A DNA stretch of 64,000 nt from a virus: positions 10,973-74,972 of IMG/VR virus record IMGVR_UViG_3300033145_001721; one strand, 5' to 3'. Of this stretch, positions 4,061 through 63,917 are shown one piece after another. Made by a program: the position numbers and the translations under genes. Each line of letters begins with the position of its first letter. The stretch's first letter is position 1. The notes beneath the pieces were generated by a model. It was given only the letters and a program-made list of their open reading frames with translations, was not told where the DNA came from and searched no databases.

Positions 4061-4825
4061 CTACAAAAATTGTCCACCGAAAATCAAACCAAAACCAGGC
4101 ATGTTAGCCGCCGTACCACACATTACGTTCAATAGCAAAATATCACCCGTACTCAATGTTGTGTAATCAGTATCAAGTAAACTAGACAAATCAACTGAAT
4201 CCGAAGTAGGTGGTTGATTTGCAGTGTTGAAAGTTTTGGTCAGTAATGTCTGCCCCCCTTCATTTTTCAAAGACAAAACAACCGTATTAGAATCGTCAAT
4301 TCCGGCAGGTGTTCCTTGCGTAAATAAAATCACGCTATCGATTACAAGACCTGTACTTGCTGCGTAGACGATGCGGTCAGTTATATCTGCTCCTGCCGCA
4401 AGATTTTCTACCATTATCATTGCATCGCCTCCGTAGAATTGATGGGTTAAATATGTAACATCTAATGTGGTGGAGCTAGATTGTCTCAGAGTTTGAGAAA
4501 TTGTCCAAAGCTCTTTGTTGTCGTTATTTTGTATGAAAGGGATTGGACGTTCAACAAACACCACTTCGTAAACAGTATTATCCTGTTCATTCAGCCAGTA
4601 AAAAGGCAGAGCTTTATTCGCTTGATAAAACGCCATCCATGTTTCTTTGTCCGTTTCAGAAACATTTCGTCGTCTTTCTTGGAATATGCGAGGATCAAAA
4701 GTAAACAACTCATTTATGCAAGGATACCCACTTGCGAAAGAAGATCGCTGCACGGCATCGTCACTATACTGATCCCCAAACCCTTCTATCTCAGGTTTAG
4801 CCGTTAGCGTTGGAAATGTATTCAT
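4061..4825 (-). CDS. Distal tail protein (gpM/Dit-like) with a C-terminal extension
   Basis: Immediately downstream of the tape measure gene; FPTL...SFASGY...PFYW...YEVVF...W.ISQTLRQ pattern. Confidence 0.65.
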   Translation of the reverse strand: MNTFPTLTAKPEIEGFGDQYSDDAVQRSSFASGYPCINELFTFDPRIFQERRRNVSETDKETWMAFYQANKALPFYWLNEQDNTVYEVVFVERPIPFIQNNDNKELWTISQTLRQSSSTTLDVTYLTHQFYGGDAMIMVENLAAGADITDRIVYAASTGLVIDSVILFTQGTPAGIDDSNTVVLSLKNEGGQTLLTKTFNTANQPPTSDSVDLSSLLDTDYTTLSTGDILLLNVMCGTAANMPGFGLIFGGQFL

Positions 4826-4837
4826 AATTTAACCCAA

Positions 4838-33084: not shown

Positions 33085-33642
33085 ATGTCTAGTATGTCTT
33101 TACATAAAGACGTAACTGCTGACAAAGCTTTACACGAAGACATTTCAACCGAAACGTTTGAACAGTGCAAAAATCTAATGTACCAATACGTCTGGAAATT
33201 CTACAACCGCTATGGAGGCGATTTCAACGACTGGGTCAGTGAAGGTCATCTGATATTCATGAAATGTATAGTCTCATACAACAATAAATATGCTTTCACA
33301 ACCTGGTTTACATTCAAGCTCCAAAAGGGTTTCATCTCTGTCATACGGAAAAAATTAGCACAATCGGTACCCAACATCACGTATAACACTAAGCTCACAA
33401 AGGCTCTAAACCCCGCATACCACACAACATTCTTCACCAGGCGAGAACAAGTATCTGATCGTACATGGACCCTCCACCAAGTAATCCAATATCCACCACG
33501 TGAACTAGATGGTGAAATTGACGCTGATGATCCAATCAATACACTAGATGCCATCATGTGGTACTGTGCTACAAAATTCCAATGGACAAAATTACAAGTC
33601 CTTGAAAGCCTAATCGAACTATGGGAATGCAGTCAACTATGA
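33085..33642 (+). CDS. Sigma-factor-like protein (region 2)
   Basis: NLMYQYVWKF...DFNDWVSEGHLIFMKC..SY....AFTTW; AGGAGG RBS. Confidence 0.6.
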   Translation: MSSMSLHKDVTADKALHEDISTETFEQCKNLMYQYVWKFYNRYGGDFNDWVSEGHLIFMKCIVSYNNKYAFTTWFTFKLQKGFISVIRKKLAQSVPNITYNTKLTKALNPAYHTTFFTRREQVSDRTWTLHQVIQYPPRELDGEIDADDPINTLDAIMWYCATKFQWTKLQVLESLIELWECSQL

Positions 33643-33673: not shown

Positions 33674-34210
33674 ATGCCTACAGGAATATACCATAGAACA
33701 AAAACCCAATTGAAAGCGGTTAAAAAGAACCTCGCAAAAGGACGAACCAAAAAAGCCAGAAAGAAAGCAGCCAAAACACTTACAAAAATTGCTAAAGACC
33801 CGAAATGGAGATCCATGGTATCTGAAAATACAAAAAAAGCAATGCATGACCCAATAATTAGAAAAAAACATTTAGATGGGATGGCGAAGGCACACAAAAA
33901 ATACGGTGTGAATTTCAAAGGTGGAAATGGACTGTCCCCTACTCCCATCATACGATTAGCTGATAGATTACTAAAACTTTGTGGATACGAAAGAGAACTT
34001 GCAGTAAAAACAAAACCCGTAAGATCCAAATTCAGAAACAAAAAACTGCCAGATTGTTACAAAATTGATTTTGGAAATCGTGAAGAAATGATAGCCATAG
34101 AATTTGATGGGCAGTGCCACCAATCCCTTCGACAACAAAAAATAGACAAGAAGAAAACAAAGGTTCTACAAGAACTCGGATGGACGGTTGTTAGGTTGAA
34201 ACACAAATGA
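33674..34210 (+). mobile_element. Free-standing homing-endonuclease-like gene (basic N-terminus + DUF559/Vsr-like nuclease)
   Basis: MPTGIYHRT...; YKIDFG....IAIEFDGQCH...D.KK...LQELGWTVVR. Confidence 0.7.
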
Positions 34211-42636: not shown

Positions 42637-43686
42637 ATGAAAGAATACAAAAACCCGTTTTGCATACGCCACGCCCACATGAGTTGCCCACTACCAATAA
42701 CCCTAGAATCCTATTGGGCTTGTGAAGCTGACTGCCATCACTGCCCAGGTCATAAGCTGAATGAAATATGGGGGAAAGAGCAACGAGTCACTGATCCAGT
42801 CAAAGCCATACACAAATTACACAACGCTCTGCGAAACCCCCACCCACGCAGTCCCCTAGCGGTTGCACTGGCCATGAAGAAGACACTCTGGCTGGGAAGA
42901 AAGACTGATCCCTACCAACCGTTGGAGGCTAGAACTAAAACCACTAGAACCATCGTCCGTGGCTTGAACAAATTGAAGTGGTCGTATGTAGTTTGCTCTC
43001 GGTATACTGATCTGATGAGGCGCGATGAAGATCTATTTCGTCAAGGGCAATCAACATTACTGGTGGAAATCACTCCAGGTGGAGAAAGTGATTGGTCTTT
43101 ATTTGAACGTAAGCGAACTACCCCAATAGAATTTCGATTGTCAGCAGCTGCTCGTTGGAATGCTCTTGGTATAAATGTTGGTGTTCGGGGAGAACCTTTT
43201 ATTCCCGGTTATCATACACCTAAACAATTTGAAGATATGCTGCGAAGGCTGAAAAGCTATGGATTGTATAGCTACAATACATACAATCTCCATCTGAACG
43301 AATACAATGCACGCAGGTTGAGCAGTATTGGATTGGACATAGAAAAGATTTGGCATCATAATCAAGATCGGTTGTGGCGACCGATACAACGCCAGCTTTG
43401 TGAAATAGCTGACAAACAAGGTATCATTCTAGGCTGTCCCGATTTCGTCAACGTGCCAAAAGGATGGTGCAGTCGTACCAATACGTGTTGTGGTGTATCT
43501 GTACCTAACCCATTCAAATTCAATACACACTGGTGGCGCAGGCTTTTGCAAAATGGTAAAACCCCTGAACAAACCATCAAGAAAACATGGGAAGGTATAG
43601 GTACAGAGGATGATCAGCAGGAAGGTCGAGCGATAATATTAGGAACGAGTAAAAACAAATATACAATAAAGGATGCTGAGTTATGA
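42637..43686 (+). CDS. Radical SAM protein (SPL/COG1533-like) 1
   Basis: LESYWACEADCHHC (CxxxCxxC), GRKTDPYQPLE, RGEPFIPG, NTCCG. Confidence 0.85.
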   Translation: MKEYKNPFCIRHAHMSCPLPITLESYWACEADCHHCPGHKLNEIWGKEQRVTDPVKAIHKLHNALRNPHPRSPLAVALAMKKTLWLGRKTDPYQPLEARTKTTRTIVRGLNKLKWSYVVCSRYTDLMRRDEDLFRQGQSTLLVEITPGGESDWSLFERKRTTPIEFRLSAAARWNALGINVGVRGEPFIPGYHTPKQFEDMLRRLKSYGLYSYNTYNLHLNEYNARRLSSIGLDIEKIWHHNQDRLWRPIQRQLCEIADKQGIILGCPDFVNVPKGWCSRTNTCCGVSVPNPFKFNTHWWRRLLQNGKTPEQTIKKTWEGIGTEDDQQEGRAIILGTSKNKYTIKDAEL

Positions 43687-44408
43687 TCTATACTATTGGA
43701 AACCAAAAGTTGGATATACCTGAAACCGGATCAAAGCGGAAGATACGAACACCACGTCAGGTTGTACCATGGCGGGACATGGCTGAAACTTGTCGCAATG
43801 TAGATGCAATTTGCAGCATTATTCAAAAACCTCCGTGTACAATTGTGGACGGTATAGCGCGTGCTGGATTTTGGGGTGCTGTGTTTCGTAACAGGTGGCC
43901 CAAATGTAAACTGCTGATGAATGGAGAGAAAGAAGATTGCATACGTGTTCTCAAACAAAATTTCCCTCAAGATAGACACGTTCAAAAAAATATCAAACAT
44001 TGGTGTCCTCCCGTATCTGATTTAGCCATATTAGATTTTGATAAGTTCACACTGAAAAAGATGGACCAATGGGAAAGGGTTTTGTCTACATGGGCGGCAA
44101 GAACGCAGCACTTTATATTTGTGGATGGTGCTTGTTTTGGATTTAAGTTTGGTACATTAAAATCCTACAATATAAGCAATCCCAATGAGTATTACTATTT
44201 GTTGAACGAGCGTTTGAAAAAAATTATAAGCAAAAGAATTGTAGCTGTATCTGCATTTGGTAACGCTGCTACAATTCTTATGCAAGACCGACACCCCCGC
44301 AAAATCAAATTTGTACCCCCAACAAATTTATCTTTATCACGGGGAAATAAAGTCTACAAATTCAACCCCAATCCTAAAAGGTCTAGGCTTGGATTAGTTA
44401 ACAAATGA
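43683..44408 (+). CDS. Class I SAM-methyltransferase-like fold protein
   Basis: TIVDGIARAGFWG (degenerate motif I), C...LKQNF, DLAILDF. Confidence 0.45.
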   Translation: MIYTIGNQKLDIPETGSKRKIRTPRQVVPWRDMAETCRNVDAICSIIQKPPCTIVDGIARAGFWGAVFRNRWPKCKLLMNGEKEDCIRVLKQNFPQDRHVQKNIKHWCPPVSDLAILDFDKFTLKKMDQWERVLSTWAARTQHFIFVDGACFGFKFGTLKSYNISNPNEYYYLLNERLKKIISKRIVAVSAFGNAATILMQDRHPRKIKFVPPTNLSLSRGNKVYKFNPNPKRSRLGLVNK

Positions 44409-45400
44409 TAAATTGGACTGATGTATTGTCGGATGTTCAAGAGTTCAAATGCAAGAAAAAGACTCTTGGACAGCTAAATTGCTTAGCTGTTGATTCTCTA
44501 TACGGATCAATGTGGGGACTCAATCATCGATACATGACTTTGCAGCAAGCTCTGACCAAAGATTTTTCAAGTATAACTGCTTACGCAATTCGTCGCATTC
44601 ATCGCTTACTGGAAATTGGTCCTGTTTCATTTCGTCCTCGCAAACTTCCAAAAGTTCGTCGTATAGGATTCGGCACATATGGATGGAAGTACGACTCTGA
44701 ACTCATAGCTTTAGCGGTCAAGCATAACCTTCTGATTGATACTGCCGAAGGTTATGGCTATGGCAAAGTGGAAACTGAATTAGGCAAAGCTTTGGTACAT
44801 CACAACGCTGAAGTCACTACCAAGGTATCACGATCTCACATGTCCCCAAAAGCTTTGCCATCAGCTGCACTCCGCAGCCGTAACAAACTTGGACTTATTC
44901 CTCACTACCAACTCCACTTTCCTCATAGCCTATATTCCGATGAGCAAATTGGGCAGTCGTTAGTACAAGTCCGTGAATCCAAAACGATCCAATCTATTGG
45001 GCTTGGCAATTGCAGCGTAGATATGATTGAATCTATGCAAGCTTTTCTGTCAGATTATTCTGGTGATGTTATTCGTAGTGTTCAAATGCGATACAATTTG
45101 GCCGACCGAAGAATTGAAAATGCATTGATGCCTTATTGTCGAAAAAGAGGCATTGCGATAATAGCTTACAGTCCGTTGGGTCAAAAGTTTTCTACTTTGC
45201 AAACACCCACATTGAGTCATATAGCGCGGCGCTATCATTGTACGACGGCACAGATTGCTTTGGCTTGGGTGTTGCGAATGCCTGGGATTATACCTATCCC
45301 CCGTACTAATAATGTAGATCATTTGAAAGACAATATAAAGGCACTTAGTATTCATTTGACCAAAAACGAAATACACAAACTCAACAACGCTTATTTATGA
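44405..45400 (+). CDS. Aldo/keto reductase with an N-terminal extension
   Basis: IGFGTY, IDTAEGYG...ETELG, TTKV, YQLHFP, SIGLGN, AYSPLG, AQIALAW, PIPRT...HLKDN. Confidence 0.9.
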   Translation: MINWTDVLSDVQEFKCKKKTLGQLNCLAVDSLYGSMWGLNHRYMTLQQALTKDFSSITAYAIRRIHRLLEIGPVSFRPRKLPKVRRIGFGTYGWKYDSELIALAVKHNLLIDTAEGYGYGKVETELGKALVHHNAEVTTKVSRSHMSPKALPSAALRSRNKLGLIPHYQLHFPHSLYSDEQIGQSLVQVRESKTIQSIGLGNCSVDMIESMQAFLSDYSGDVIRSVQMRYNLADRRIENALMPYCRKRGIAIIAYSPLGQKFSTLQTPTLSHIARRYHCTTAQIALAWVLRMPGIIPIPRTNNVDHLKDNIKALSIHLTKNEIHKLNNAYL

Positions 45401-45407
45401 GGATGTT

Positions 45408-46808
45408 ATGGACTACTATGAATTGCGATCCGTTTTAAGTCGCATTATCCCACGTGAAACTTCATTGGTACCAACACACCATATGGTTAACGCCATAAAA
45501 GAAAAAGGGCGCAAACAAAACTACTCTGAATATAAATTGAACCAAGATAAATGGGTGAAACAAGAACGACTATTGAATGATCAAGAGATTTCTTCATTTA
45601 TTGAAATCAGCTGCCGTGCAGCTGCGTGTCCAATGCCACTGAATTTGGATATCTGGGATGGTATTCTTTGTCCTTATGGATGTAAATACTGTTTCGCCAA
45701 TCTATTTCGCGCATCTCTTTACACCGCCTTTTTTGATAATAGCAAAACACTAGGGCTGCGACATTGTAACCCTACAAAATACAAAAAGGAAATGGACAAA
45801 CTTTTCAAGCATCGGGGAGAAAATCCACATGACGTTTCCAATTCTTTAGCCAAAGCCATCGCCATGGGATTGCCTATTCGCTTCGGAATTCGCTTTGAGG
45901 ATTTTATAAAAGCAGAAGAACGACATGGCGTCAGCTTAGAGTTAATGAATTATTTAGCTGATCACAAATATCCCCTAATGATCAACACTAAATCAGATTT
46001 GGTATGTCATGATGAATATGTAGATGCCATGATTCGAACAAAATCAGCTGTTCACGTAACACTCATATCCAGTAACAATAAAATCTTGAAAGCGTTAGAG
46101 CCCAATGCACCTTCCTATGAACGCCGATTGGAAGCTATGCGAATTCTTTCTGCTGCAGGTATCAGAGTTGTTGCCCGCATTGAACCCTATCTGGTATATG
46201 TTACAGATCAAAAGGAGGATGTTGAAAAATACATCAAAGACGTTTGGGATGCAGGTGTACGAAACATCACCTTTGATAACTATTCGTACAGTGCGAAAAA
46301 CCCAGGTATCCGTCAAGCGTTTCGGAATGAAGGTATTGATTTTGATCGGTTGTTTTTGTTGGGGTGTGATTCACAACCACTCAGCAGCTTATTGTTGGGT
46401 TCGTTTATGCAGATGTTTCGTGATGCAGGTTTCAGCTGTTCGACTTTTGACATGGGTAATGTTCCGGATAACGATCAGAATATATGTTGCGAAGTCGGTG
46501 ATTGGTTTGGTTCCGGATTCAATTATGGTTGTGCTGTTATGGCTGCCAGATTCATTCAAAGTCGTAAAGGGCGTGAAACAACATGGAAGAATTTTGAAAG
46601 TTGGGTGGATGATCACGGAGGTTTTCTCCGTGATACATTGAAGCATGAAGTTCATCAACTGTGGAATTGCGAAGGGCTAGATGCATACAGTCATAGTTGG
46701 GCTAGAGGATTGGAAGCTGTGGGCAGCGATAGTTCAGGTTTAGTGTGGGTTTGGCATGATACGGACTTCCGATTGGATCTCTACGATAATATAGCTAGAG
46801 GTTTGTAG
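45408..46808 (+). CDS. Radical SAM protein (SPL/COG1533-like) 2
   Basis: CPYGCKYC, INTKS, LEPNAPSYERRL, RVVARIEP, NICCE. Confidence 0.88.
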   Translation: MDYYELRSVLSRIIPRETSLVPTHHMVNAIKEKGRKQNYSEYKLNQDKWVKQERLLNDQEISSFIEISCRAAACPMPLNLDIWDGILCPYGCKYCFANLFRASLYTAFFDNSKTLGLRHCNPTKYKKEMDKLFKHRGENPHDVSNSLAKAIAMGLPIRFGIRFEDFIKAEERHGVSLELMNYLADHKYPLMINTKSDLVCHDEYVDAMIRTKSAVHVTLISSNNKILKALEPNAPSYERRLEAMRILSAAGIRVVARIEPYLVYVTDQKEDVEKYIKDVWDAGVRNITFDNYSYSAKNPGIRQAFRNEGIDFDRLFLLGCDSQPLSSLLLGSFMQMFRDAGFSCSTFDMGNVPDNDQNICCEVGDWFGSGFNYGCAVMAARFIQSRKGRETTWKNFESWVDDHGGFLRDTLKHEVHQLWNCEGLDAYSHSWARGLEAVGSDSSGLVWVWHDTDFRLDLYDNIARGL

Positions 46809-47296: not shown

Positions 47297-48034
47297 ATGA
47301 GCAAAATAAATGATCGCATCGAAACTATATTTTCACATGCTGTTGCACTCCAGCAGAGTGGACGCTTACGCAATACAATTTATTGTCGAGGATCATTTGT
47401 CTACATCTTCAACCAAGATCATACAGTGTTGATGCGATTCACTATTCCCTCTGCAAGTGTCAAATTCAAACACCCTATAAGCTTCTTTGCCAACGACTAT
47501 GACAGTCGTCGTTTCACGGAGAAAGATGGGTGCATTTGTTTTATCCAAACAAGTAGTGACAACACCCACGAATATGTGCGTGTAAAATCTTGCCGCGTCC
47601 CGAATTTCAAAACCACAGACATCAAAAAGCTATTCGATAAGTATGAATCAAGATTTAAGAAGGTCAATGGCGTTGAAATATCTGAAGCTTTTTGTCAGTT
47701 TCTCGACAGTGCTTTGAGCCATGTCGAATTCAGTAGTAAAGACGGAAAACTTATTGGCGTCCAGCGTAACATTTACACGGGTGCGGCAACAACAATCACA
47801 CAAAATAAGAAGCAACAAAAACTTTTGACATCGGAATCAAAATTACGAAACTTCGAGCCTATCGGATTGCGAACCAATGACTTCACAGCAATATTTACAT
47901 TTGCAAAGTCTGTACAATTTTGGTTCGGCCGCAAGGGCACCGTTCGTTTTTGCAGCAAAGATCCTCGTATGCCCTTTGTGGGTTTCATTAGCCAATGTAT
48001 GTATGATGAATTAGGAGTAGACTATGGGAGGTAA
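47297..48034 (+). CDS. Possible sliding-clamp-like protein (two-domain size)
   Basis: 245 aa; helix-strand pattern IFSHAVAL...IYC....YIFNQDHTVLMRF and C-terminal RTNDF..IF...SVQFWF reminiscent of PCNA/gp45; fold not confirmed. Confidence 0.35.
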   Translation: MSKINDRIETIFSHAVALQQSGRLRNTIYCRGSFVYIFNQDHTVLMRFTIPSASVKFKHPISFFANDYDSRRFTEKDGCICFIQTSSDNTHEYVRVKSCRVPNFKTTDIKKLFDKYESRFKKVNGVEISEAFCQFLDSALSHVEFSSKDGKLIGVQRNIYTGAATTITQNKKQQKLLTSESKLRNFEPIGLRTNDFTAIFTFAKSVQFWFGRKGTVRFCSKDPRMPFVGFISQCMYDELGVDYGR

Positions 48035-48185
48035 ATCACGAAAGACCGGGGGCATCAGTCTCAAACTGATCCAGAAAATAGCAAACCGAACCAATACAGG
48101 TAAAAGCTGTGGAACCAAAAAAAATCAATCAAAACAGCGTCTTGGTTTATCTGAAAATTCTACAGATGACAAAGGTTCATCCTAA
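48024..48185 (+). CDS. Small basic peptide (53 aa)
   Basis: Not in the track. AGGAG RBS at 48013; MGGKSRKTGGISLKLIQKIANRTNTGKSCGTKKNQSKQRLGLSENSTDDKGSS*. Confidence 0.55.
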   Translation: MGGKSRKTGGISLKLIQKIANRTNTGKSCGTKKNQSKQRLGLSENSTDDKGSS

Positions 48186-48885
48186 TTTTTGGACAAGCAA
48201 AGACTATTTACATTACAGCGAAACTCCTTGGATTGAAAAGGATGGATTGTCTGGGTGGTGGGATGAAACAGAATGGCTGATTCCACCCTTAGATAATTTT
48301 GGATGTTTTGTAACGGCAGGTGTAAATGTATACGCTGGATGGCCTCAAATGCATAACGAGGATACTGATAAGTTTGTAGACCACCAATTCGTTTACAATC
48401 CTCAGGATTTCCTAAAAATGGAAGGTCATTCATGGCAAACCTTCCGTAAAAACGTACGGAAGTTTCCTAGGCGAAACTCAGGTGATTTACAATACAGACG
48501 GTTCGACAACGAAGAGGGTTTGGAAAAATTGCTTGTGCTTTGGGCTCAAGGCCGAACAATCTTTGATCCCGATACTATGGTAAGAACTATAATGCGTAGT
48601 CCCAACCGAAAAGGATTGTTCTTGAATGACTGTTTGATTGGTGTCAACGTATGGGATGAAAACTGGATGTATGTGAACTACCGTTACTGCATTGATGATA
48701 GTTCAGGATTTCTCAATGAGTATTTGCGATGGAGGTTTTATACAGATGAAGAAATTTTGAACAAAACCAAATTAGTCAACGATGGAGGTTCACTAGATTC
48801 TGATACACTCTATCGTTTCAAAATGAAACTCAACCCTGTAACCGTATGGAAAGTCTATAGTATTAGGAGTATTAACAATGGCTAA
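48109..48885 (+). CDS. DUF2156 / aaPGS-C-like GNAT-fold transferase
   Basis: FVYNPQDFLKMEG.SW..FRKNVRKF and VNDGGSLD...LYRFKMKLNP resemble the DUF2156 Y.Y...L..L.G...R....F and N..ED.G..GLR..K..Y.P motifs; start may be 48166. Confidence 0.6.
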   Translation: MEPKKINQNSVLVYLKILQMTKVHPNFWTSKDYLHYSETPWIEKDGLSGWWDETEWLIPPLDNFGCFVTAGVNVYAGWPQMHNEDTDKFVDHQFVYNPQDFLKMEGHSWQTFRKNVRKFPRRNSGDLQYRRFDNEEGLEKLLVLWAQGRTIFDPDTMVRTIMRSPNRKGLFLNDCLIGVNVWDENWMYVNYRYCIDDSSGFLNEYLRWRFYTDEEILNKTKLVNDGGSLDSDTLYRFKMKLNPVTVWKVYSIRSINNG

Positions 48886-48931: not shown

Positions 48932-49001
48932 ATAAAATTCCATGCGATAATATATTATAATTGCACACGTGTTTAGACTACGAATTATAGAAAGAGCTAA
49001 T

Positions 49002-49985
49002 ATGGGCAAGCCCAAAGTGCTTAAGTATAACCTCGAAAACATACCAACTCGCAAAGACGTCTTCGGCAATGAACGAAAAGACTTATCGGTCAAAGGCCGA
49101 ATAGGATTTGTACCAATATCTATTTGGCGGTGTGATTGGGGATTGGTTAAAAAACTGAAATGCATAATTGGCGATTTTGGTCAGGTCCGATCATTAGATC
49201 AAACACAGTCTTCGGGAATTTGCGGGCATAGACATAAATCTCAAAATGCACGCACGTACGAAAATACATACTGTCACAGTATGCAAAACAAATCTACGGG
49301 TGGTTGGCACCGAATCGGTTCCCGATATGGAGATCGCAGCACAGACGCTGATGATAACGTTTCCATATTCAATCCGCATTTAGCATTGATGATTCTTTCG
49401 GCGTACTGTCCAAAAGGGGCATACATTTACGACCCATTTGCTGGGGGTGGCACGCGCGGATTCATCGCAACCGCAATGGGATTCAAATATTATGGGCGGG
49501 AGATACGTCAAATCGAAGTAAATCGGATAAAACGAGTCCAAAAAAAATTGAAACTCAAATTTCATATCTTCTGTGCAGATGCGAAAAGCGATCCACCAAA
49601 AAATGAACGGTTTGACTTTAGTTACACATGCCCCCCATATTGGAATATGGAAGTCTATTCCAATTTACCGGATGACATTTCTAATGCCAATACATACCAA
49701 GAGTTTCTCTCTGGTATGAAAAAAGCGTTGATCAGTACATACAAAGCCCTTAAACCCGGCACGTTATCAATTTGGGTTGTTGGAAATTTTAGGCAAGGAC
49801 ACAGATTAATTCATTTTAATGGTGATTTGATACACAAAGCAGAAGAAGTCGGTTTCCAACTTCATGATGAAATTATTTTCTGGGGAGGATCTGGACGAGC
49901 AGGCCTCCGCTCGGGGAACTTCGTAAAAAACAGAAAGTCAGTTAGAATTCACGAATATGTAATAATACTGAAAAAGCCGAATTAA
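49002..49985 (+). CDS. DNA amino-methyltransferase (m4C/m6A type)
   Basis: SIFNP, YDPFAGGGTRG, TCPPYWNMEVYS; probable start MGKPK at 49002. Confidence 0.85.
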   Translation: MGKPKVLKYNLENIPTRKDVFGNERKDLSVKGRIGFVPISIWRCDWGLVKKLKCIIGDFGQVRSLDQTQSSGICGHRHKSQNARTYENTYCHSMQNKSTGGWHRIGSRYGDRSTDADDNVSIFNPHLALMILSAYCPKGAYIYDPFAGGGTRGFIATAMGFKYYGREIRQIEVNRIKRVQKKLKLKFHIFCADAKSDPPKNERFDFSYTCPPYWNMEVYSNLPDDISNANTYQEFLSGMKKALISTYKALKPGTLSIWVVGNFRQGHRLIHFNGDLIHKAEEVGFQLHDEIIFWGGSGRAGLRSGNFVKNRKSVRIHEYVIILKKPN

Positions 49986-49993
49986 CCAACATG

Positions 49994-50061
49994 TAGGAGT
50001 ATTAACAATGGTTAAAATCAAACGTGAACAATTATTGAAAGAACTGAATTCAGTCGTTCCC
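49994..50061 (+). repeat. 68-bp direct repeat, copy B (functional beta clamp start)
   Basis: taggagtattaacaatggttaaaatc...cagtcgttccc. Confidence 0.95.
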
Positions 50062-51033
50062 GGGCTATCAGAGCGCGAGATTATTGAACAATCATCATGC
50101 TTTGTATTCAAGGACGGAAACGTTTACACATTCAATGACGAAATAGCTTGTTGGGCTAAATCCTCTTTGGACATCACTGGAGCGGTATCCGCTAAAAAGC
50201 TGATAAGTCTACTGCAAAGTATGTCTGAAGAAAGGCTGGACGTCAACGCATCCAAAAACGGCAAGCTGGTTATCAAGGGGATACACAAGCGAGCTACATA
50301 TGCTCTTGAATCTCGTATCGCTCTGCCCATTGATTCTATCAAGAAACCCAAAACGTGGAAATCACTACCATCTGATTTTCTCGAAGGGCTGTCCCTAGTA
50401 GCTGATTGTGCAGGCCGAGATGAATCAAACTTTGTTTTGACTTGTATCCATATCGCACCAGACAAACTTGAAGCAAGCGACAACGATCGTGTAGCTAAGT
50501 TCATCACAAAAACCCGCGTGCGTAAATCCATGCTTATCCGCAAAGACACCATCAAACATCTGGTCGCTGCCGGAGTGACTTATTTTGGAGAAACATCTGA
50601 TTGGGTTCACTTTCGTACCGGCAAAGGCCCAATCATTTGTTGCCGACGATACACCGAAAGCTTCCCTAACACAGATAAGGCTTTTCAAATCAGCGGGAAG
50701 AAAATGAGCCTGCCGGAAGGGTTGGAAAAAGCTTCTCGTCGTGCTGCTATTTTCAGTGCTGACAATCCAGAAGACAGTGACATATTTGTCACACTCACTA
50801 CCAATAGGGCCCTGATTAGAGGCACAGGCACAGGTGGGGAGTTTCAGGAAATCAAAAAGATAGCGTATACAGGAAAACCCTTAACCTTTTTGATTTCTCC
50901 CACACAACTGATTGCATTAACCCGCAAGCATAACAGCTGTATTGTAGCACAAGAAAAGCTAAAATGCAAAAGCGGACAATTTGAATTCGTAGCTGCGTTG
51001 GGTGTGACTCCGCAAGAAGATGAGAATGTGTAA
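50008..51033 (+). CDS. dnaN: DNA polymerase III beta-type sliding clamp
   Basis: 341 aa; KIKREQLLKELNSV, DESNFVLTCIH...EASD..R, FP...LEKASRRAAIF. Confidence 0.75.
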   Translation: MVKIKREQLLKELNSVVPGLSEREIIEQSSCFVFKDGNVYTFNDEIACWAKSSLDITGAVSAKKLISLLQSMSEERLDVNASKNGKLVIKGIHKRATYALESRIALPIDSIKKPKTWKSLPSDFLEGLSLVADCAGRDESNFVLTCIHIAPDKLEASDNDRVAKFITKTRVRKSMLIRKDTIKHLVAAGVTYFGETSDWVHFRTGKGPIICCRRYTESFPNTDKAFQISGKKMSLPEGLEKASRRAAIFSADNPEDSDIFVTLTTNRALIRGTGTGGEFQEIKKIAYTGKPLTFLISPTQLIALTRKHNSCIVAQEKLKCKSGQFEFVAALGVTPQEDENV

Positions 51034-51122
51034 TGCAATAAAACCCATACGAATCATTCATCAGTGCTTATCTCAAAAGATTGAGGACCAAATCAAGCTA
51101 TGAAAAAGTTGGAAGAAATGTG

Positions 51123-52358
51123 ATGAGAAAAGGATTCTTTGTCCCAAGCGACATATCCACATCCAAATCTATGAGCACAACCCCTCGTTGTGGTTTGTGC
51201 AATTTACATCGTACATGCATACATCCCAAGATGCCGCCTACGGGTAAAGGCCACAAACGATTATTGTTTGTGGCTGAAGCTCCAGGTGGTTTGGAAGATG
51301 AAAAGAACACACAACTCATCGGAAAATCTGGGCAGTACTTGCGATCAATGTTGAAACGTTATGGAATAGACTTAGACAAAGATGCCCGAAAAACGAATGC
51401 TGTAATTTGTTGTCCACCAAAAAACGAAAAGCCAACAAGCGTTCAAATTGCGGCCTGCCGTCCAAACGTGCTGAAAGAAATTGTACGTTTCCAACCTACC
51501 TGTATCGTATTGTTAGGTGCCACAGCAGTTGAATCTGTCATACCTATTTTCTGGAAAGACAAAGTCGATGCATTCTCACGATGGACCGGATGGCAGATAC
51601 CAATACAAAGCAAAAACGTTTGGGTGTGCCCTACTTATCATCCAGCGTACATACTACGCAAACCGGGAAAACAATACACACTGCTTTTCAAACAACACAT
51701 CAAGGCTGCTGTCAAATTGCAAAAACCACCATGGGTAAAGGTGCCAGATTTCAGTACTGGAATTGAAATTATCACATCCCCATCACAAGCGGGTCGATAC
51801 CTACATCAACTATATCGATCTAAGCCCACACACACCACCTGGGACTTGGAAACGTCCAGCCTGAAGCCTGATACCCCTGGATCGGAGATCGTTTGTTGTA
51901 GCGTGTGTACGGGGCCAGAAACAGTAGTGTTTCCCTGGGCTGGCGACGCAGTAGACGAAATGTTAGAGATTCTCCAAAATCCACACATCCGAAAGATAGC
52001 AGCCAACAATAAGTTTGAGCACCGTTGGATTCTACACAAACACAAAGTGCACGTAAATGGTTGGTATTATGATGTAGTGCTTGGGGCACACGCTTTGGAT
52101 AATAGACCAAAAGTCACAGGTGTAAAATTCCAATCATTTGTGCGACTAGGGCAACAAAGTTACAATGATCATATCGAACCATACTTACGTGCAGCCTCGT
52201 ACAAACTCAACAGAATCCTTCAACTGCCTATTACTGAAGTAATGTTGTACTGTGGAATAGATTCAAAAGTAGAAAACGAATTGGCACTAATACAAATACC
52301 CGAACTGATAAAACAAGGAAAGGTTCACCGACGTGCAATGCAAACCTATAACGCATGA
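51123..52358 (+). CDS. Family-4 UDG-like domain fused to a 3'-5' exonuclease (N-terminal part of an SPO1-type polymerase)
   Basis: CGLCNL, FVAEAPG..ED, CCPP, LLGATA, PTYHPAY, then WDLETS (ExoI), NNKFE (ExoII), YCGIDS (ExoIII). Confidence 0.85.
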   Translation: MRKGFFVPSDISTSKSMSTTPRCGLCNLHRTCIHPKMPPTGKGHKRLLFVAEAPGGLEDEKNTQLIGKSGQYLRSMLKRYGIDLDKDARKTNAVICCPPKNEKPTSVQIAACRPNVLKEIVRFQPTCIVLLGATAVESVIPIFWKDKVDAFSRWTGWQIPIQSKNVWVCPTYHPAYILRKPGKQYTLLFKQHIKAAVKLQKPPWVKVPDFSTGIEIITSPSQAGRYLHQLYRSKPTHTTWDLETSSLKPDTPGSEIVCCSVCTGPETVVFPWAGDAVDEMLEILQNPHIRKIAANNKFEHRWILHKHKVHVNGWYYDVVLGAHALDNRPKVTGVKFQSFVRLGQQSYNDHIEPYLRAASYKLNRILQLPITEVMLYCGIDSKVENELALIQIPELIKQGKVHRRAMQTYNA

Positions 52359-53727
52359 CGGATACCATTTGTTTCAACAAGGATCGATCACACTGGCTGA
52401 AATGGAGTGTAACGGATTTTGTATTGATACCGCATATATAGCACGTGCCCAAAAACATTTAAGCGTGAAAATTCAAACGCTTACAGAACGCATGAAAAAG
52501 GATAAGGTCTATCGTGTTTGGAAACGAAAGTATGGCCTTAAAATGAACTTTGGTAGTAGGGAACAATTAGGAGATATTGTTTTCAACGAACTTAAATTGG
52601 CGGAAGGCACGAAGACTAAAACAGGGAGGTACAAAGCCGACAAAGCAGCACTTGAAAATATCGACGTGCCCTTTTTAGAATGGTATACTAAACTCGAACA
52701 GTTTAAGAAAGCTAAAGGTACATACCTTAACGGAATTCAACGACATACAGATTCAGAAGGTTTCATACATCCATTTTTTGGTTTGGATACAGTCCGAACA
52801 TTTCGGGGCTCGTGTGCTGATCCGAATCTACAAAATATACCAGTCCGCGATCCCATTATCAAAAAACTCATACGTCGTGGATTCATCCCACGCGAACCGA
52901 ATAGACATATTGTGGAACATGATTTCAGCGGTGTAGAAGTAAAAACGGCTGCATGCTATAATCACGACCCAACACTTATCCAATACATTAAAGACAAAAA
53001 GTCTGACATGCACCGAGATATGTGCATGCAAATCTATTGTTTGACCCTGAAAGAATATACAGATGCCTTGCGCCACTGTGCAAAAAACATGTTTGTGTTT
53101 CCCGAATTTTACGGCGATTGGTATCTTAGTTGTGCTCAATCGTTATGGTATGCTGTGCAACGATTACATCTGAAAACAAAAACAGGTGAGGATGTGTTTA
53201 AGCATCTTCGTCGTCACGGCATTACAAAGCTAGGCCAATGTATTCCAGGGGAAACCCCTTTACCCCACAGCTTTGAAGGCCATATCAAAAAGGTTGAAAA
53301 GGACTTTTGGGAAAACAGATTTCGTGTGTATACAGAATGGAAATGGGATTGGTGGGAAGACTATTTAGATCGCGGATACTTTGATACCCTCACAGGCTTT
53401 CGTATTTCGGGTGCTATGGATCGCAAGAAGGTCATAAATTATCCAATCCAAGGATCTGCATTTCATTGCCTTTTGTGGTGCCTAATTCGCATCAATAAAC
53501 TGCTGCGAAAATATAAGATGAAGACAAAACTGATTGGGCAGATTCACGATAGTGTAATTGCTGATGTCTTGCACCGTGAGTTGAAAGACTACATTGAAAT
53601 AGCCCACCAGGTCATGACAATTGATTTACGCAAACATTGGAATTGGATTATTGTTCCAATAGGTGTCGATGCAGAAGTAGCACCAATGGGCCGAAGTTGG
53701 TATGAAAAGAAACGATATACATTATGA
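52333..53727 (+). CDS. polA: DNA polymerase family A, polymerase domain
   Basis: DPNLQNIP, DFSGVE (motif A), RHCAKNMFVFPEFYG (motif B), NYPIQGSA, QIHDS (motif C). Confidence 0.92.
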   Translation: MQCKPITHDGYHLFQQGSITLAEMECNGFCIDTAYIARAQKHLSVKIQTLTERMKKDKVYRVWKRKYGLKMNFGSREQLGDIVFNELKLAEGTKTKTGRYKADKAALENIDVPFLEWYTKLEQFKKAKGTYLNGIQRHTDSEGFIHPFFGLDTVRTFRGSCADPNLQNIPVRDPIIKKLIRRGFIPREPNRHIVEHDFSGVEVKTAACYNHDPTLIQYIKDKKSDMHRDMCMQIYCLTLKEYTDALRHCAKNMFVFPEFYGDWYLSCAQSLWYAVQRLHLKTKTGEDVFKHLRRHGITKLGQCIPGETPLPHSFEGHIKKVEKDFWENRFRVYTEWKWDWWEDYLDRGYFDTLTGFRISGAMDRKKVINYPIQGSAFHCLLWCLIRINKLLRKYKMKTKLIGQIHDSVIADVLHRELKDYIEIAHQVMTIDLRKHWNWIIVPIGVDAEVAPMGRSWYEKKRYTL

Positions 53728-60284: not shown

Positions 60285-60494
60285 ATGAAATGGGAACCAA
60301 AAACCTATTATGACAACAAAGCAGTAATTGTGTGGGGATTAAACTTGACTGCCGAGCAAATGGATAGGTTGAAGAAAGGTGAAATATTTTATCGCACCAA
60401 TCCTAATGGAGAAGTGCAAACCATTTTTATGGATAGTTACAATCAAATCCGAGAATCATGCCAGTTCAAAAAAACGGAAAAACCGTCATGTTGA
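60285..60494 (+). CDS. Hypothetical protein
   Basis: Packed ORF. Confidence 0.5.
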   Translation: MKWEPKTYYDNKAVIVWGLNLTAEQMDRLKKGEIFYRTNPNGEVQTIFMDSYNQIRESCQFKKTEKPSC

Positions 60495-61408
60495 AAGGCA
60501 TTAGGATAATCAACCACAGATCGAACCACTCCCTCAAACTTTTATTCAGTAAACATGTGACTACAATCTGTGGTGAAAGCTTTCAAGGCAAAAGCAATGT
60601 CTTACGCGCACTCAAATGGATAGCACTAAACAAACCGGCTGGCATCAGCTTCATATCCTGGGGGCATAAAGAATCTTCTGTCTTACTTGCGACGGACAAA
60701 CACCGCGTGCGAAGAACACGCAGTAAATCGAAAAATACATACGAACTAGACAAACAGGAACTACATGCATTTGGAAATAGTGTACCTGACTCCGTACAAA
60801 ATGCTCTACGTTTGTCCGATCTCAATTTTCAAACCCAGCAAGAAATACCGCATGGTAGCGGACCGTTATTCTGGTTTGCACTTTCATCTGGCGAAGTCAG
60901 CAGACGATTGAACGCTGTTGTAAATTTGGATTTGATAGATCGAATCCAAACGAACGCACAGAAAAAATTACGTACAGCACAAACGCTTGAGCGTGAATAC
61001 GAGCGAATCGTTGAAGAGGAAAGGAACCAATCTGAACAATTAGCCTATGCCAAACAAATGTTCCACGATTGGCAATCCATACATCAACTGCATACTGACA
61101 TCCAGAGAATAACACAACAACGGAATGAATTGAGAAAGCTATTTACAGATGCTCAAAACCAAAAACAAAAAGCTGCAAAGCTGAATAAAATTCTATCAGC
61201 TTTACAAAAGGACTTTGCCCAATTTGAAACTTTACGACAAACGATAATAGAAACAGAAAACGACCGTGATAGTTTGCGTATAATGATTCAAAGAACTCAA
61301 CGAATGCAAACTATGATGTGTGAATTGAATGAGCAAAAAGAAACAACAGAACAAAGATACAAACAAAAGATGAAAGGCCGGTGTCCCTTATGCAATCGAA
61401 AGACTTAG
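60488..61408 (+). CDS. SbcC/Rad50-like ATPase, N-terminal half (Walker A, coiled coil, Zn hook)
   Basis: ICGESFQGKSNVLRAL, NFQTQ, ends GRCPLCNRKT. Confidence 0.82.
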   Translation: MLKGIRIINHRSNHSLKLLFSKHVTTICGESFQGKSNVLRALKWIALNKPAGISFISWGHKESSVLLATDKHRVRRTRSKSKNTYELDKQELHAFGNSVPDSVQNALRLSDLNFQTQQEIPHGSGPLFWFALSSGEVSRRLNAVVNLDLIDRIQTNAQKKLRTAQTLEREYERIVEEERNQSEQLAYAKQMFHDWQSIHQLHTDIQRITQQRNELRKLFTDAQNQKQKAAKLNKILSALQKDFAQFETLRQTIIETENDRDSLRIMIQRTQRMQTMMCELNEQKETTEQRYKQKMKGRCPLCNRKT

Positions 61409-62364
61409 AAGTTGCTGCTATATTTTGTAGTGATTTGCACCTAAGCCTTAACCCGCCAATCTACCGATCCAAAGAACCAGATTGGTTTGCAGCTATGTCG
61501 CGACCTTTATGTGAATTGCGACGGTTGCAAATCAAACATCACTGTCCCGTTATATGTTGTGGTGATGTTTTTGATAAATGGAAAGCAGAACCGGAACTAA
61601 TCAACTTTGCCATAGCACAACTACCAAAACAATTCTATACTATTGCCGGACAGCACGATTTACCAAATCATTGTGTGGAAGATATACACAAAAGCGCATT
61701 ATCTACGCTATGTCTTGCCGGTGTTGCTTGTATATTCAATACACTGAACTATTATCCATTCGCTCCTGATTTTATATTGAAATCTGCACATTATGGTCAG
61801 AAACTAATAGAAGCTTCAAACCATAAAGAAAGCCCAATCAACATAGGTGTAATCCATCAATACAATTGGATTCCACAACATGGGCACCAAAAGGCGAAAG
61901 ACAAATACAAAGTAACATCACGCCGCAAAGAATTCAAAAAATACGACTATGTATTTTGTGGAGACAACCACATACCGTTTTACACACCACTCAAATGGAA
62001 ACATCATATTCGGATGTTTGTAAACTGTGGTGCTATGATGATCCGCAAATCTGATGATAAATTCACACCCACATTTTGGCTTCTGGTAAGCTACAATAAT
62101 AAGCAGGGTAGAACTTTTCGTATTGTCCCTTACAAAATAAATATCAAACACGATGTATATTGGAACAATCCAAAAGTCAAAGAAAAAGAACAGGAACCTT
62201 CTATAGATGACTTAGCTAAATTCAGACAAGAACTCGAAAAGCTAGGTGAGAGCGGACAAGATGTTGTGGCTGGAGTAAAAGCGTATGTCGCTGGTTTGCC
62301 TAACGTTTCATCCAGGACTGTAAACTTTATTGAAAAGGTTTTGTATGAATGCCAAAACCAATAG
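61390..62364 (+). CDS. SbcD/Mre11-like metallophosphoesterase nuclease
   Basis: SDLH, GDVFD, AGQHD, GDNH, NCG. Confidence 0.88.
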   Translation: MQSKDLEVAAIFCSDLHLSLNPPIYRSKEPDWFAAMSRPLCELRRLQIKHHCPVICCGDVFDKWKAEPELINFAIAQLPKQFYTIAGQHDLPNHCVEDIHKSALSTLCLAGVACIFNTLNYYPFAPDFILKSAHYGQKLIEASNHKESPINIGVIHQYNWIPQHGHQKAKDKYKVTSRRKEFKKYDYVFCGDNHIPFYTPLKWKHHIRMFVNCGAMMIRKSDDKFTPTFWLLVSYNNKQGRTFRIVPYKINIKHDVYWNNPKVKEKEQEPSIDDLAKFRQELEKLGESGQDVVAGVKAYVAGLPNVSSRTVNFIEKVLYECQNQ

Positions 62365-62599
62365 ACTGCAAGAGGTTCTTCAACTCCGCAAATCAATACA
62401 TGAATTGGAACAGAGCAAAGCTCGCACGGAAGGTTCACTAGAACAATCGATGTGTATGCTACAAAAGGATTTCAAAGTAACATCCATCGATAAAGCCAAA
62501 CAGCTACTGGCAAAAATGGACGCAACGTTAGCTAAAAAGAATCGAACATTTGAAACCAAACTGGAAAGATTCAAACGGCGATGGAAGAAATATCTGTAA
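62345..62599 (+). CDS. Small coiled-coil protein (possible middle fragment of SbcC)
   Basis: Heptad pattern; lies between SbcD and the SbcC C-terminal half. Confidence 0.55.
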   Translation: MNAKTNRLQEVLQLRKSIHELEQSKARTEGSLEQSMCMLQKDFKVTSIDKAKQLLAKMDATLAKKNRTFETKLERFKRRWKKYL

Positions 62600-63159
62600 A
62601 GCAAATTGATATCGTGGTTCGTAACCGTTACGATAAATACACACAAGGTGTGGCTCAATATACACGCGCAAAGAAACAACACAAACAAGCTCGGACCAAT
62701 AGGATTGTTGCGAAAAAAGGCCAAGTTATTTTGCAACAAGCATCAGAACAAATCCAAAGACAAGCACACGAACAAATTGCAAAAACTATCACACAGTGTC
62801 TACAATTCGTGTTTGGTGATTCCTATTCCTTCTGCATAAAATTTGAACGCAAGAGGAACAGAACCCAAGCCTGTTTACAGTTGCTCAAGGATGGCAACAT
62901 AATCGCTGATCCGGCAAATGAGGATTCGGGTGGTGTGTTGTCTGTGGCCAGTTTTGCTCTCCGATTAAGTTGTCTATTTTTGCATAAACCCACACTGCAA
63001 AAAGTGCTTATTCTGGATGAGCCTTTCTCCCACGTAAGCAAGAAATATCTATCGCGTGTACGCGAATTGTTAGAAAGATTGTCCCAAGAATTTGGATGTC
63101 AAATTATCATGGTCACACATATATCAGAACTACAAATTGGAAAGGTGGTAGAGCTATGA
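62581..63159 (+). CDS. SbcC/Rad50-like ATPase, C-terminal half
   Basis: DSGG signature, LILDEPF Walker B, MVTH. Confidence 0.85.
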   Translation: MEEISVKQIDIVVRNRYDKYTQGVAQYTRAKKQHKQARTNRIVAKKGQVILQQASEQIQRQAHEQIAKTITQCLQFVFGDSYSFCIKFERKRNRTQACLQLLKDGNIIADPANEDSGGVLSVASFALRLSCLFLHKPTLQKVLILDEPFSHVSKKYLSRVRELLERLSQEFGCQIIMVTHISELQIGKVVEL

Positions 63160-63917
63160 GTGTAAACTTGATCCGAAACAAAGGATCGTTCAAGATTCTA
63201 CGCATTACAAAAAACCCGCTGCAACTAATAGAACGATGTGGTCGAACTGCTTATCAAAGCCATGATAAAATAACCAAGGACTCTGCCAAAAAGTTTGTCC
63301 AAATGTTAATCAATCGCGGACATGAATCAGTTCTCGAACACGCTACCATAACAGTACAATTTGATAACGTTAGCAGAGGATTTACACATGAGTTGGTGCG
63401 GCATCGCTTATGTTCGTTCACACAGGAATCAACTCGATATGTAAACGAAAGCAATTTCACATTTATATTTCCTCCGGGATTGCGAGATTGTGAAACAGAA
63501 ATGGACGGGCAAGATATCACGGACGCTATCGAAAAAATAGAAGCTACATACACTGAATTAATAAGCAAAGGATGGCCAGCCCAAGACGCACGTCAAATAC
63601 TTCCCATTGGCATCAAAAGCCAAATCGTCATAACAGCAAATTTTCGACAGTGGCGTCACATCTTTCAACTCCGCACATCCCAATCAGCTCATTGGGAAAT
63701 CCGACGTGTAATGATAATGCTACTCACAACACTTCGCGCCCACATTGTACCCATAGTATTTGATGATATAGTTCCACAATTCACCAAACGAGAAGCTGAA
63801 GATTGGGGTTGGAAGATTATTCAATTCAATCCTGAAATCAGCTCATTGGGAAATCCGACGTGTAATGATAATGCTATTTACAACATTTCGCGCCCACATT
63901 GTACCCATAGTATTTGA
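63156..63917 (+). CDS. thyX: Flavin-dependent thymidylate synthase; C-terminus altered by a tandem duplication
   Basis: GHESVLEH, SRGFTHELVRHRLCSFTQESTRY, DARQILP, NFRQW, AHWEIR. Confidence 0.93.
   Translation: MSVNLIRNKGSFKILRITKNPLQLIERCGRTAYQSHDKITKDSAKKFVQMLINRGHESVLEHATITVQFDNVSRGFTHELVRHRLCSFTQESTRYVNESNFTFIFPPGLRDCETEMDGQDITDAIEKIEATYTELISKGWPAQDARQILPIGIKSQIVITANFRQWRHIFQLRTSQSAHWEIRRVMIMLLTTLRAHIVPIVFDDIVPQFTKREAEDWGWKIIQFNPEISSLGNPTCNDNAIYNISRPHCTHSI

Follow-up and report, generated by a model that had tools for sequence, protein, structure and literature searches.

A soluble, phage-restricted tandem GNAT protein as a candidate aminoacyl-tRNA-dependent enzyme in a clamp-linked radical SAM module

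Why a phage should keep a gene resembling aminoacyl transferases of lipids and cell walls among its DNA replication genes is the question raised by a locus in the IMG/VR virus record IMGVR_UViG_3300033145_001721. We analyzed a stretch of 64,000 nucleotides (nt) of this record (positions 10,973 to 74,972), hereafter the window, which is part of a complete viral genome of 74,972 bp with direct terminal repeats of 114 bp. The gene in question, at 48109-48885 of the window and here called the transferase, encodes a DUF2156-like protein predicted to contain two GNAT domains. The reading that we tentatively favor is that this protein moves an amino acid from a host aminoacyl-tRNA (aa-tRNA) to a DNA-borne acceptor, and that this would be the installing step of a DNA modification module based on radical S-adenosylmethionine (SAM) enzymes and linked to a sliding clamp.

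The transferase stands alone and is soluble. A first-pass annotation made from the nucleotide sequence had described an open reading frame (ORF) with two motifs and no transmembrane segments, located with radical SAM genes on one side and a clamp gene on the other, and this description was accurate: FVYNPQDFLKMEGHSWQTFRKNVRKF and VNDGGSLDSDTLYRFKMKLNP are both present in the ORF at 48109-48885 exactly as given, the annotation of the neighboring genes agrees with the position, and the maximum Kyte-Doolittle value over 19 residues is 0.97 for the window protein and 1.41 across 52 relatives, with no transmembrane segment found. The gene caller placed the start at the ATG at 48166, giving a protein of 239 amino acids (aa). 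We prefer the upstream GTG, which gives 258 aa, because the 19 residues between both codons align with the homologs and include the invariant Tyr14, and the shorter version was rejected on the same grounds. Relatives are 142-327 aa long (best 150 of 291 related clusters), and a search for longer forms, in itself weak evidence, found no fused version of 539-2000 aa. The family is mildly acidic (median isoelectric point, pI, 5.8). Eleven residues, including D183, R192, R207, D225, G226 and K238 (numbering of the 258-aa form, used below unless stated), are invariant across the 52 relatives, and since these relatives are only 32-55% identical to the window protein this conservation is far above chance. 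In addition, the shortened N-terminal lobe carries the family-specific motifs PNFW and FLDYxFIYxP.

The DUF2156-like label of the first-pass annotation was weakly founded on sequence and well founded on structure. The window protein falls below the threshold of PF09924 (DUF2156 / LPG_synthase_C), scoring 14.8 bits where 27.5 are required (E=0.016), in an alignment covering only profile positions 101-159; 19 of the 52 relatives match this family at E<=0.01, the best at 6.3e-7. A search of the PDB with the single sequence returned only a chance antibody match, and the family profile matched the stand-alone DUF2156 structure 2hqy (E=0.003) over the motif between both lobes (2hqy residues 122-183). 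An AlphaFold2 model of the 239-aa version, built from an alignment of 52 sequences, reached a pLDDT of 95.8 and a pTM of 0.91. With this model Foldseek (probability 1.00) ranked 2hqy at 5e-9, the MprF/aaPGS synthase domains at about 1e-6, Sbb17/Sba18 at 1e-5, FemX at 1e-4 and ATE1 at 1e-3. VIA-align gave a Z score of 20.5 against 2hqy (231 of 239 residues, root-mean-square deviation 3.1 Å), 14-15 against MprF/aaPGS over 215-225 residues, 11.5-12.7 against FemX and Sbb17 and 10-11 against tandem GNATs that use acyl-coenzyme A (acyl-CoA). The predicted structure is therefore unambiguously a tandem (double) GNAT fold of the MprF-C/aaPGS/FemX type, as the first-pass annotation had anticipated. Because the window protein lies under the PF09924 threshold, we treat the phage proteins as a sister family within the same superfamily and not as members of PF09924.

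Between the two lobes lies a helix (residues 107-122) with the motif FRKNxRK, in which R113, K114 and K118 are invariant, and no other part of the protein aligns with PF09924 or 2hqy at the sequence level. A positively charged helix is a tRNA-binding feature common to aa-tRNA transferases such as aaPGS, the Fem enzymes and L/F-transferase (PMC6103681). The invariant basic residues of the phage family and their alignment to 2hqy and PF09924 give the transferase a helix of this kind, which is presumed to bind the acceptor stem. GNATs that use acyl-CoA have a pyrophosphate-binding motif, Q/R-x-x-G-x-G/A, between strand 4 and helix 3. This loop was not seen in the C-terminal lobe in our reading of the alignment of the 52 relatives, where the family consensus is RYCIxxxxPFLxEYxRY.

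The closest solved structures resemble the transferase to different degrees. The Bacteroides thetaiotaomicron protein 2hqy is also a soluble, whole-chain tandem GNAT of similar size, but identity is only 13-14%, it is a cellular protein with no known function, and the phage family is about 40 residues shorter with its own N-lobe motifs. The synthase domain of MprF/aaPGS (PDB 4v34-36, 7duw, 9j8s) shares the tandem GNATs and the basic tRNA-binding helix, whereas MprF also has a flippase/transmembrane domain and a lipid acceptor; the transferase is phage-only, has no transmembrane segment and a shortened N-lobe, and in its genomic setting a lipid acceptor is implausible. FemX/FemA/FemB and Sbb17/Sba18 are soluble tandem GNATs of similar fold for which aa-tRNA is the donor of the amino acid and an amine the acceptor, but they have no sequence-level match to the transferase and act in cell-wall or antibiotic biosynthesis, not from a phage replisome operon.

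The transferase family is restricted to phages. It comprises 291 related clusters (50% identity, from 1.8 billion proteins) and was found in at least 99 IMG/VR contigs, and the module described below in at least 124 viral contigs. Only five matches came from a set of about 185,000 prokaryotic species genomes, all on contigs of metagenome-assembled genomes assigned to five different taxa; these were rejected as cellular homologs because every one carries the same phage module. The phage genome has no tRNA genes, so any donor would be a host aa-tRNA. A tblastn search with the transferase and radical SAM B against 50,697 isolated-phage records, a set that may omit records near the genome of the window, gave no match, and a literature search found no paper on this module.

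The company of the gene is strongly conserved. Across 80 transferase loci with flanking sequence, to which all counts out of 80 refer, the order is fixed: DnaB (52 loci), radical SAM A (56), radical SAM B (74), a 245-aa protein (77), the transferase (80), the replicative clamp (74), a UDG-exonuclease protein (70), PolA (60) and the clamp loader (68), so that the module sits between DnaB and clamp/PolA. When the survey was anchored on radical SAM B instead, both the gene of the 245-aa protein and the transferase were present in 63 of 63 loci with enough flank, and a 53-aa peptide in all of them. The module is thus a near all-or-none set of both radical SAM proteins, the 245-aa protein, the peptide and the transferase.

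To judge by their profile matches, both radical SAM proteins fall in the SPL-like PA0069/Rv2578c branch. Radical SAM B, the most conserved gene of the module (mean identity of the alignment 51%), matches the NCBIfam models Rv2578c, PA0069 and mobile-pair-B at 1e-11 to 5e-16, far below cutoffs. Its profile aligned by hhalign with gp53 of phage M6, a known DNA-hypermodification radical SAM enzyme (PMC8989533), with a probability of 82% (E 1e-5, 213 columns); this remote link is visible by profile-profile comparison only, as a search of the M6 ORFs with the hidden Markov model profile of radical SAM B gave no match. The same profile found nothing meaningful among PDB sequences, and the C-terminal domain returned only unnamed viral clusters and a weak DUF1848 lead in the protein atlas. 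The C-termini of radical SAM A read (F/Y)YT(M/L)KD(A/I)G and those of radical SAM B DFR(K/Q)(D/E)(L/M)L(E) (loci L001-L080). The 245-aa protein has no Pfam or PHROG match, and the top Foldseek matches of its AlphaFold2 model are all PCNA (E about 1e-9 to 6e-10, TM-score 0.5-0.6). From this predicted PCNA fold it follows that the phage would have a second, module-specific clamp. The homologs of this PCNA-like protein close with the invariant motif C..YDE(L/M)G, after which comes a charged tail that varies. The conserved tails of the radical SAM proteins, and that of the peptide, may be clamp-docking elements, a suggestion drawn from their sequence patterns.

The 53-aa peptide begins with MGGKSRKTGGISLKLIQK and is preceded by the Shine-Dalgarno sequence TAGGAG, 8 nt upstream of its ATG. 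After the conserved head come an amphipathic helix, a variable linker rich in Lys, and a tail with a hydrophobic motif, which is di-hydrophobic in 37 of 47 peptides; the peptides are basic (median pI 10.4). A regular expression found it in 74 of 80 transferase loci and three more have GTG starts, and in an independent scan for the DNA pattern of the head the transferase lay just downstream in 91 of 103 cases, the remainder being chance matches or cuts at contig ends. G2, G3, K4, S5, R6, K7, G9 and L15 are invariant while the partner proteins are only 30-55% identical, and G9, S12 and L15 are invariant or nearly so without being imposed by the regular expression. Furthermore, the codons vary synonymously, including switches between AGY and TCN for Ser and between AGR and CGN for Arg, which indicates that selection acts on the peptide itself; a conserved nucleotide element was rejected as an explanation on this basis. 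The protein atlas held no usable match for the peptide.

The module also contains inserted genes, and these differ from lineage to lineage. These include a PALP-fold enzyme using pyridoxal phosphate (PLP; 25 loci), DUF362 (5) and a DAO-type oxidase using flavin adenine dinucleotide (FAD; 3), along with the aldo-keto reductase, the N6/N4 DNA-methylase-like protein and the 241-aa protein of the window (Table 1). In the tally of inserted genes the aldo-keto reductase cluster and the 241-aa protein were each counted in 7 loci, and in locus L007 a related methyltransferase gene separates the peptide from the PCNA-like gene. Genes of the TET-associated glycosyltransferase TAGT (PF20691), a family of phage DNA glycosyltransferases (PMC13390438), occur inside or beside the module in L011, L025, L086, L097/L208 and L130/L235, and also in L023. 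As a separate observation, the module region of the related phage L002 contains an inserted mobile element with Hint/intein-like and DUF559 (HNH-type) parts (6347-7357, plus strand), and a DUF559 gene is also present at 33674-34210 of the window.

Transfer of an amino acid from a charged tRNA to DNA has a precedent. Mom of phage Mu moves glycine from Gly-tRNA to N6 of adenine in double-stranded DNA, which is followed by a rearrangement on the base (PMC13219725, 2026). Hence aa-tRNA-to-DNA transfer is a real reaction type, and the view of the first-pass annotation that such a use of aa-tRNA would be unusual now stands only in part: the reaction is no longer unprecedented (PMC13219725), while Mom belongs to a different GNAT family. 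Like the role proposed here, Mom is a phage enzyme of the GNAT superfamily that uses charged tRNA to hypermodify DNA. However, it is a dimer of single GNATs with a helix-turn-helix (HTH)-like insertion and an active site formed by R111 and S124 (PMC13219725), and it acts alone, whereas the transferase is an acidic tandem GNAT of another family that lacks such an insertion and always comes with radical SAM proteins, a clamp and a peptide. The listed structural matches of our model did not include Mom, an absence that does not in itself exclude a relationship.

A second comparison is with the pathways of phages M6, ViI and PaMx11, in which SPL-like radical SAM, PLP and FAD enzymes sculpt amino acids attached to DNA in combinatorial accessory sets (PMC8989533). 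The phage module has the same enzyme classes and swappable accessories, and since enzymes like its PLP enzyme and FAD oxidase tailor DNA-bound amino acids in these known pathways, both place the module in a DNA-modification context. The known pathways begin with 5-hydroxymethyldeoxyuridine (5-hmdU) made by a ThyA-like hydroxymethylase, after which a DNA kinase and AADT act, the latter with free amino acids (PMC8989533). In our case an aa-tRNA-type transferase is the only candidate installer, and no ThyA-type gene (PF00303) was found in the complete genome in a search whose positive controls worked. Furthermore, neither a kinase nor an AADT was seen in the annotation of the plus-strand arm, the minus-strand (structural) arm not having been scanned for either, so that these scans did not recover the ThyA-like hydroxymethylase, 5-HMUDK kinase and AADT of 5-hmdU-based hypermodification.

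According to the reading that we favor, the acceptor stem of a host aa-tRNA would be bound on the invariant basic helix FRKNxRK and the amino acid would be passed to a nucleophile held by the shortened, family-specific N-lobe. The DNA of the phage itself would carry this acceptor, which would be a base or else a group attached to one by partner enzymes, and the swappable PLP, FAD, aldo-keto reductase, methyltransferase and glycosyltransferase enzymes would then finish the adduct. The short list of acceptors offered by the first-pass annotation, namely DNA, a nucleotide or the adjacent peptide, remains the right one, and the link to DNA is strengthened by the PCNA-fold clamp, the SPL-like radical SAM proteins and the TAGT and N6/N4-methyltransferase accessory genes. 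A peptide-scaffolded version of this scheme, which we regard as unlikely, would have the transferase load the amino acid onto the Gly-Gly-Lys head of the peptide docked on the PCNA-like clamp, from where the SPL-like radical SAM enzymes would graft or rearrange the group onto the canonical bases of DNA under replication, a route that needs no hydroxymethylated precursor.

Among the other explanations, the strongest keeps the chemistry and changes the acceptor to the co-encoded peptide (GGKSRKTGGISLKLIQK), either at the N-terminal Gly-Gly exposed after removal of Met1 or, within the invariant GGKSRK head, at Lys4, Ser5 or Lys7. Its C-terminal tail may in addition dock the peptide on the PCNA-like ring, and the product would be either a clamp-bound peptide that has been modified or an intermediate on a carrier peptide. 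We consider this possible, if somewhat doubtful. The peptide is essentially universal and adjacent to or overlapping the transferase gene, it is conserved at the protein level while its partners diverge, and its charge is complementary to that of the enzyme (pI 10.4 and 5.8, respectively). FemA and FemB extend an N-terminal glycine, which resembles the Gly-Gly head of the peptide, and amines of peptides or amino sugars are the acceptors for most of the soluble relatives (FemX/A/B, L/F-transferase, ATE1, Sbb17, PacB); aminoacylation of a carrier peptide also has a precedent in the PEARL/pearlin pathways. Nevertheless, an amino acid fixed to the peptide as an amide would not be available for onward transfer to DNA, and where genes have been inserted the peptide stays beside the PCNA-like gene in some lineages and beside the transferase in others, a linkage that does not favor the transferase. 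In addition, lineage L023 is the only one of the 80 loci with enough flank that lacks radical SAM B, the PCNA-like gene and the GGKSRK motif, none of which was found elsewhere in its 87%-complete record, and yet in the usual slot it has retained a well conserved transferase (E 4e-82, with 10 of the 11 invariant residues), with a decayed MGGSSCG… ORF at the expected position of the peptide. As the motif decayed there along with the radical SAM and PCNA-like genes while the transferase was kept, this lineage suggests that the invariant head is tied to the radical SAM and clamp partners and not to the transferase. Directly upstream of the L023 transferase is a TAGT gene (4710-5855, plus strand, E 5.4e-40), which takes the place of the missing radical SAM, PCNA-like and peptide genes, suggesting that the transferase keeps company with DNA-modifying enzymes. 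No ThyA-type gene was detected in the L023 record, nor a TET/JBP (PF12851) match, in the latter case in a search in which no control responded.

Other acceptors or donors seem less probable still. An aa-tRNA-dependent transfer to another soluble acceptor, such as a small metabolite, a nucleotide or deoxynucleoside triphosphate precursor or a protein (for instance a clamp), would agree with the fold and the basic helix, with the very diverse acceptors of the relatives and with the fact that the closest structure, 2hqy, has no known function. We nevertheless find it improbable, as it leaves the strict linkage to a PCNA-fold clamp, SPL-like radical SAM proteins and a peptide unexplained, and no nucleotide-metabolism partner is linked to the module, the flavin-dependent thymidylate synthase ThyX being ordinary and 14 kb away. 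It is also quite improbable that the protein is a tandem GNAT that takes acyl-CoA or another acyl donor, like MshD, VipF or the glucosamine N-acetyltransferases, or that has aa-tRNA as its substrate instead of its donor. Fold alone does not fix the co-substrate, a point stressed by the authors of the Mom study, and acyl-CoA tandem GNATs also match the model; however, the best matches are all aa-tRNA transferases, 3-10 Z units above the acyl-CoA enzymes, and the family consensus RYCIxxxxPFLxEY has no CoA-pyrophosphate motif while the invariant basic helix is kept. Lastly, a modifier of host membrane lipid or of a cell-wall precursor similar to MprF or FemX, acting for example in superinfection exclusion, is hardly credible: MprF synthase domains and FemX are indeed among the closest solved structures, but the protein has neither a transmembrane segment nor a flippase fusion, the family is absent from cellular genomes, the N-lobe is shortened relative to the lipid enzymes, and the gene always lies within a replisome operon with a clamp and radical SAM proteins.

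Several points weigh against transfer to DNA, the reading that we favor. The transferase is a compact, acidic protein in which no DNA-binding element comparable to the HTH-like insertion of Mom is obvious, the window protein does not reach the PF09924 threshold, and the adjacent conserved basic peptide is an equally natural acceptor. With ThyX in place of a ThyA-type gene there is no known route to a reactive group on the base, so that the starting chemistry would be new. Furthermore, L023 is a single lineage with an incomplete record, and the weight that it can carry is limited.

If transfer to DNA is correct, the transferase would represent a second, structurally unrelated class of phage enzyme, after Mom, that diverts charged tRNA to DNA modification. 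The pathway that it opens would be widespread and independent of a hydroxymethylase, a DNA kinase and AADT, an independence that would point to radical chemistry of a new kind acting on canonical bases. With a clamp of PCNA fold reserved for the module and an invariant mini-peptide, both associated with modification enzymes, base modification would be coupled to the replisome in a novel manner. DNA modifications of this sort influence how well phages resist restriction and CRISPR, and sequencing can be confounded by them.

Table 1. Positions of the transferase, its inter-lobe helix and the surrounding genes in the window.
Feature	Position	Strand	Details
Radical SAM A, SPL-like branch	42637-43686	+	349 aa; NCBIfam PA0069 1.6e-9; phrog_13321 1.4e-9
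Accessory gene, unknown family	43683-44408	+	241 aa; no family match; 9/80 loci, same relative position
Accessory aldo-keto reductase	44405-45400	+	PF00248 4.8e-36; 9/80 loci
Radical SAM B, SPL/PA0069/Rv2578c-like	45408-46808	+	466 aa; CxxxCxxC at C88/C92/C95; PF04055 4.8e-7
Predicted PCNA-fold two-domain clamp-like protein, module-specific second clamp	47297-48034	+	245 aa; AlphaFold2 pLDDT 91.1
Basic peptide	48024-48185	+	53 aa; invariant N-terminus MGGKSRKxG..S..L; overlaps PCNA-like stop; overlaps transferase ORF by 77 nt in another frame
Transferase, soluble DUF2156-like tandem GNAT, putative aa-tRNA-dependent aminoacyl transferase	48109-48885	+	258 aa; GTG start
Inter-lobe helix with basic motif W109..F112-R113-K114-N115..K118, presumed tRNA acceptor-stem binding	48427-48474	+	helix 88-103 of the 239-aa model
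Accessory N6/N4 DNA-methylase-like protein	48969-49985	+	338 aa; PF01555 7.6e-14; phrog_498 7e-33; 11/80 loci
Replicative sliding clamp, downstream module boundary	50008-51033	+	phrog_947 'DNA polymerase processivity factor' 4.1e-27; median +815 nt
ThyX, flavin-dependent thymidylate synthase	63096-63917	+	PF02511, E 4e-53

Downstream of the replicative clamp, DNA polymerase A is encoded in two plus-strand ORFs, 51081-52358 (family-4 UDG and 3'-5' exonuclease) and 52333-53727 (polymerase domain), which overlap by 26 nt and correspond to consecutive parts of phrog_17. Either the gene is split or a frameshift is involved, and 60-70 of the 80 loci have both pieces. Scans for promoters and terminators gave nothing above shuffle expectation. 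An SbcC/Rad50-like ATPase is also found in N- and C-terminal pieces, around the gene of an SbcD-like phosphoesterase (60458-61408, 61381-62364 and 62581-63159, plus strand). At the other end of the plus-strand replication arm, its first gene (33085-33642, plus strand) encodes a protein weakly similar to sigma-70 region 2 and sits at the point of divergence from the minus-strand structural arm.

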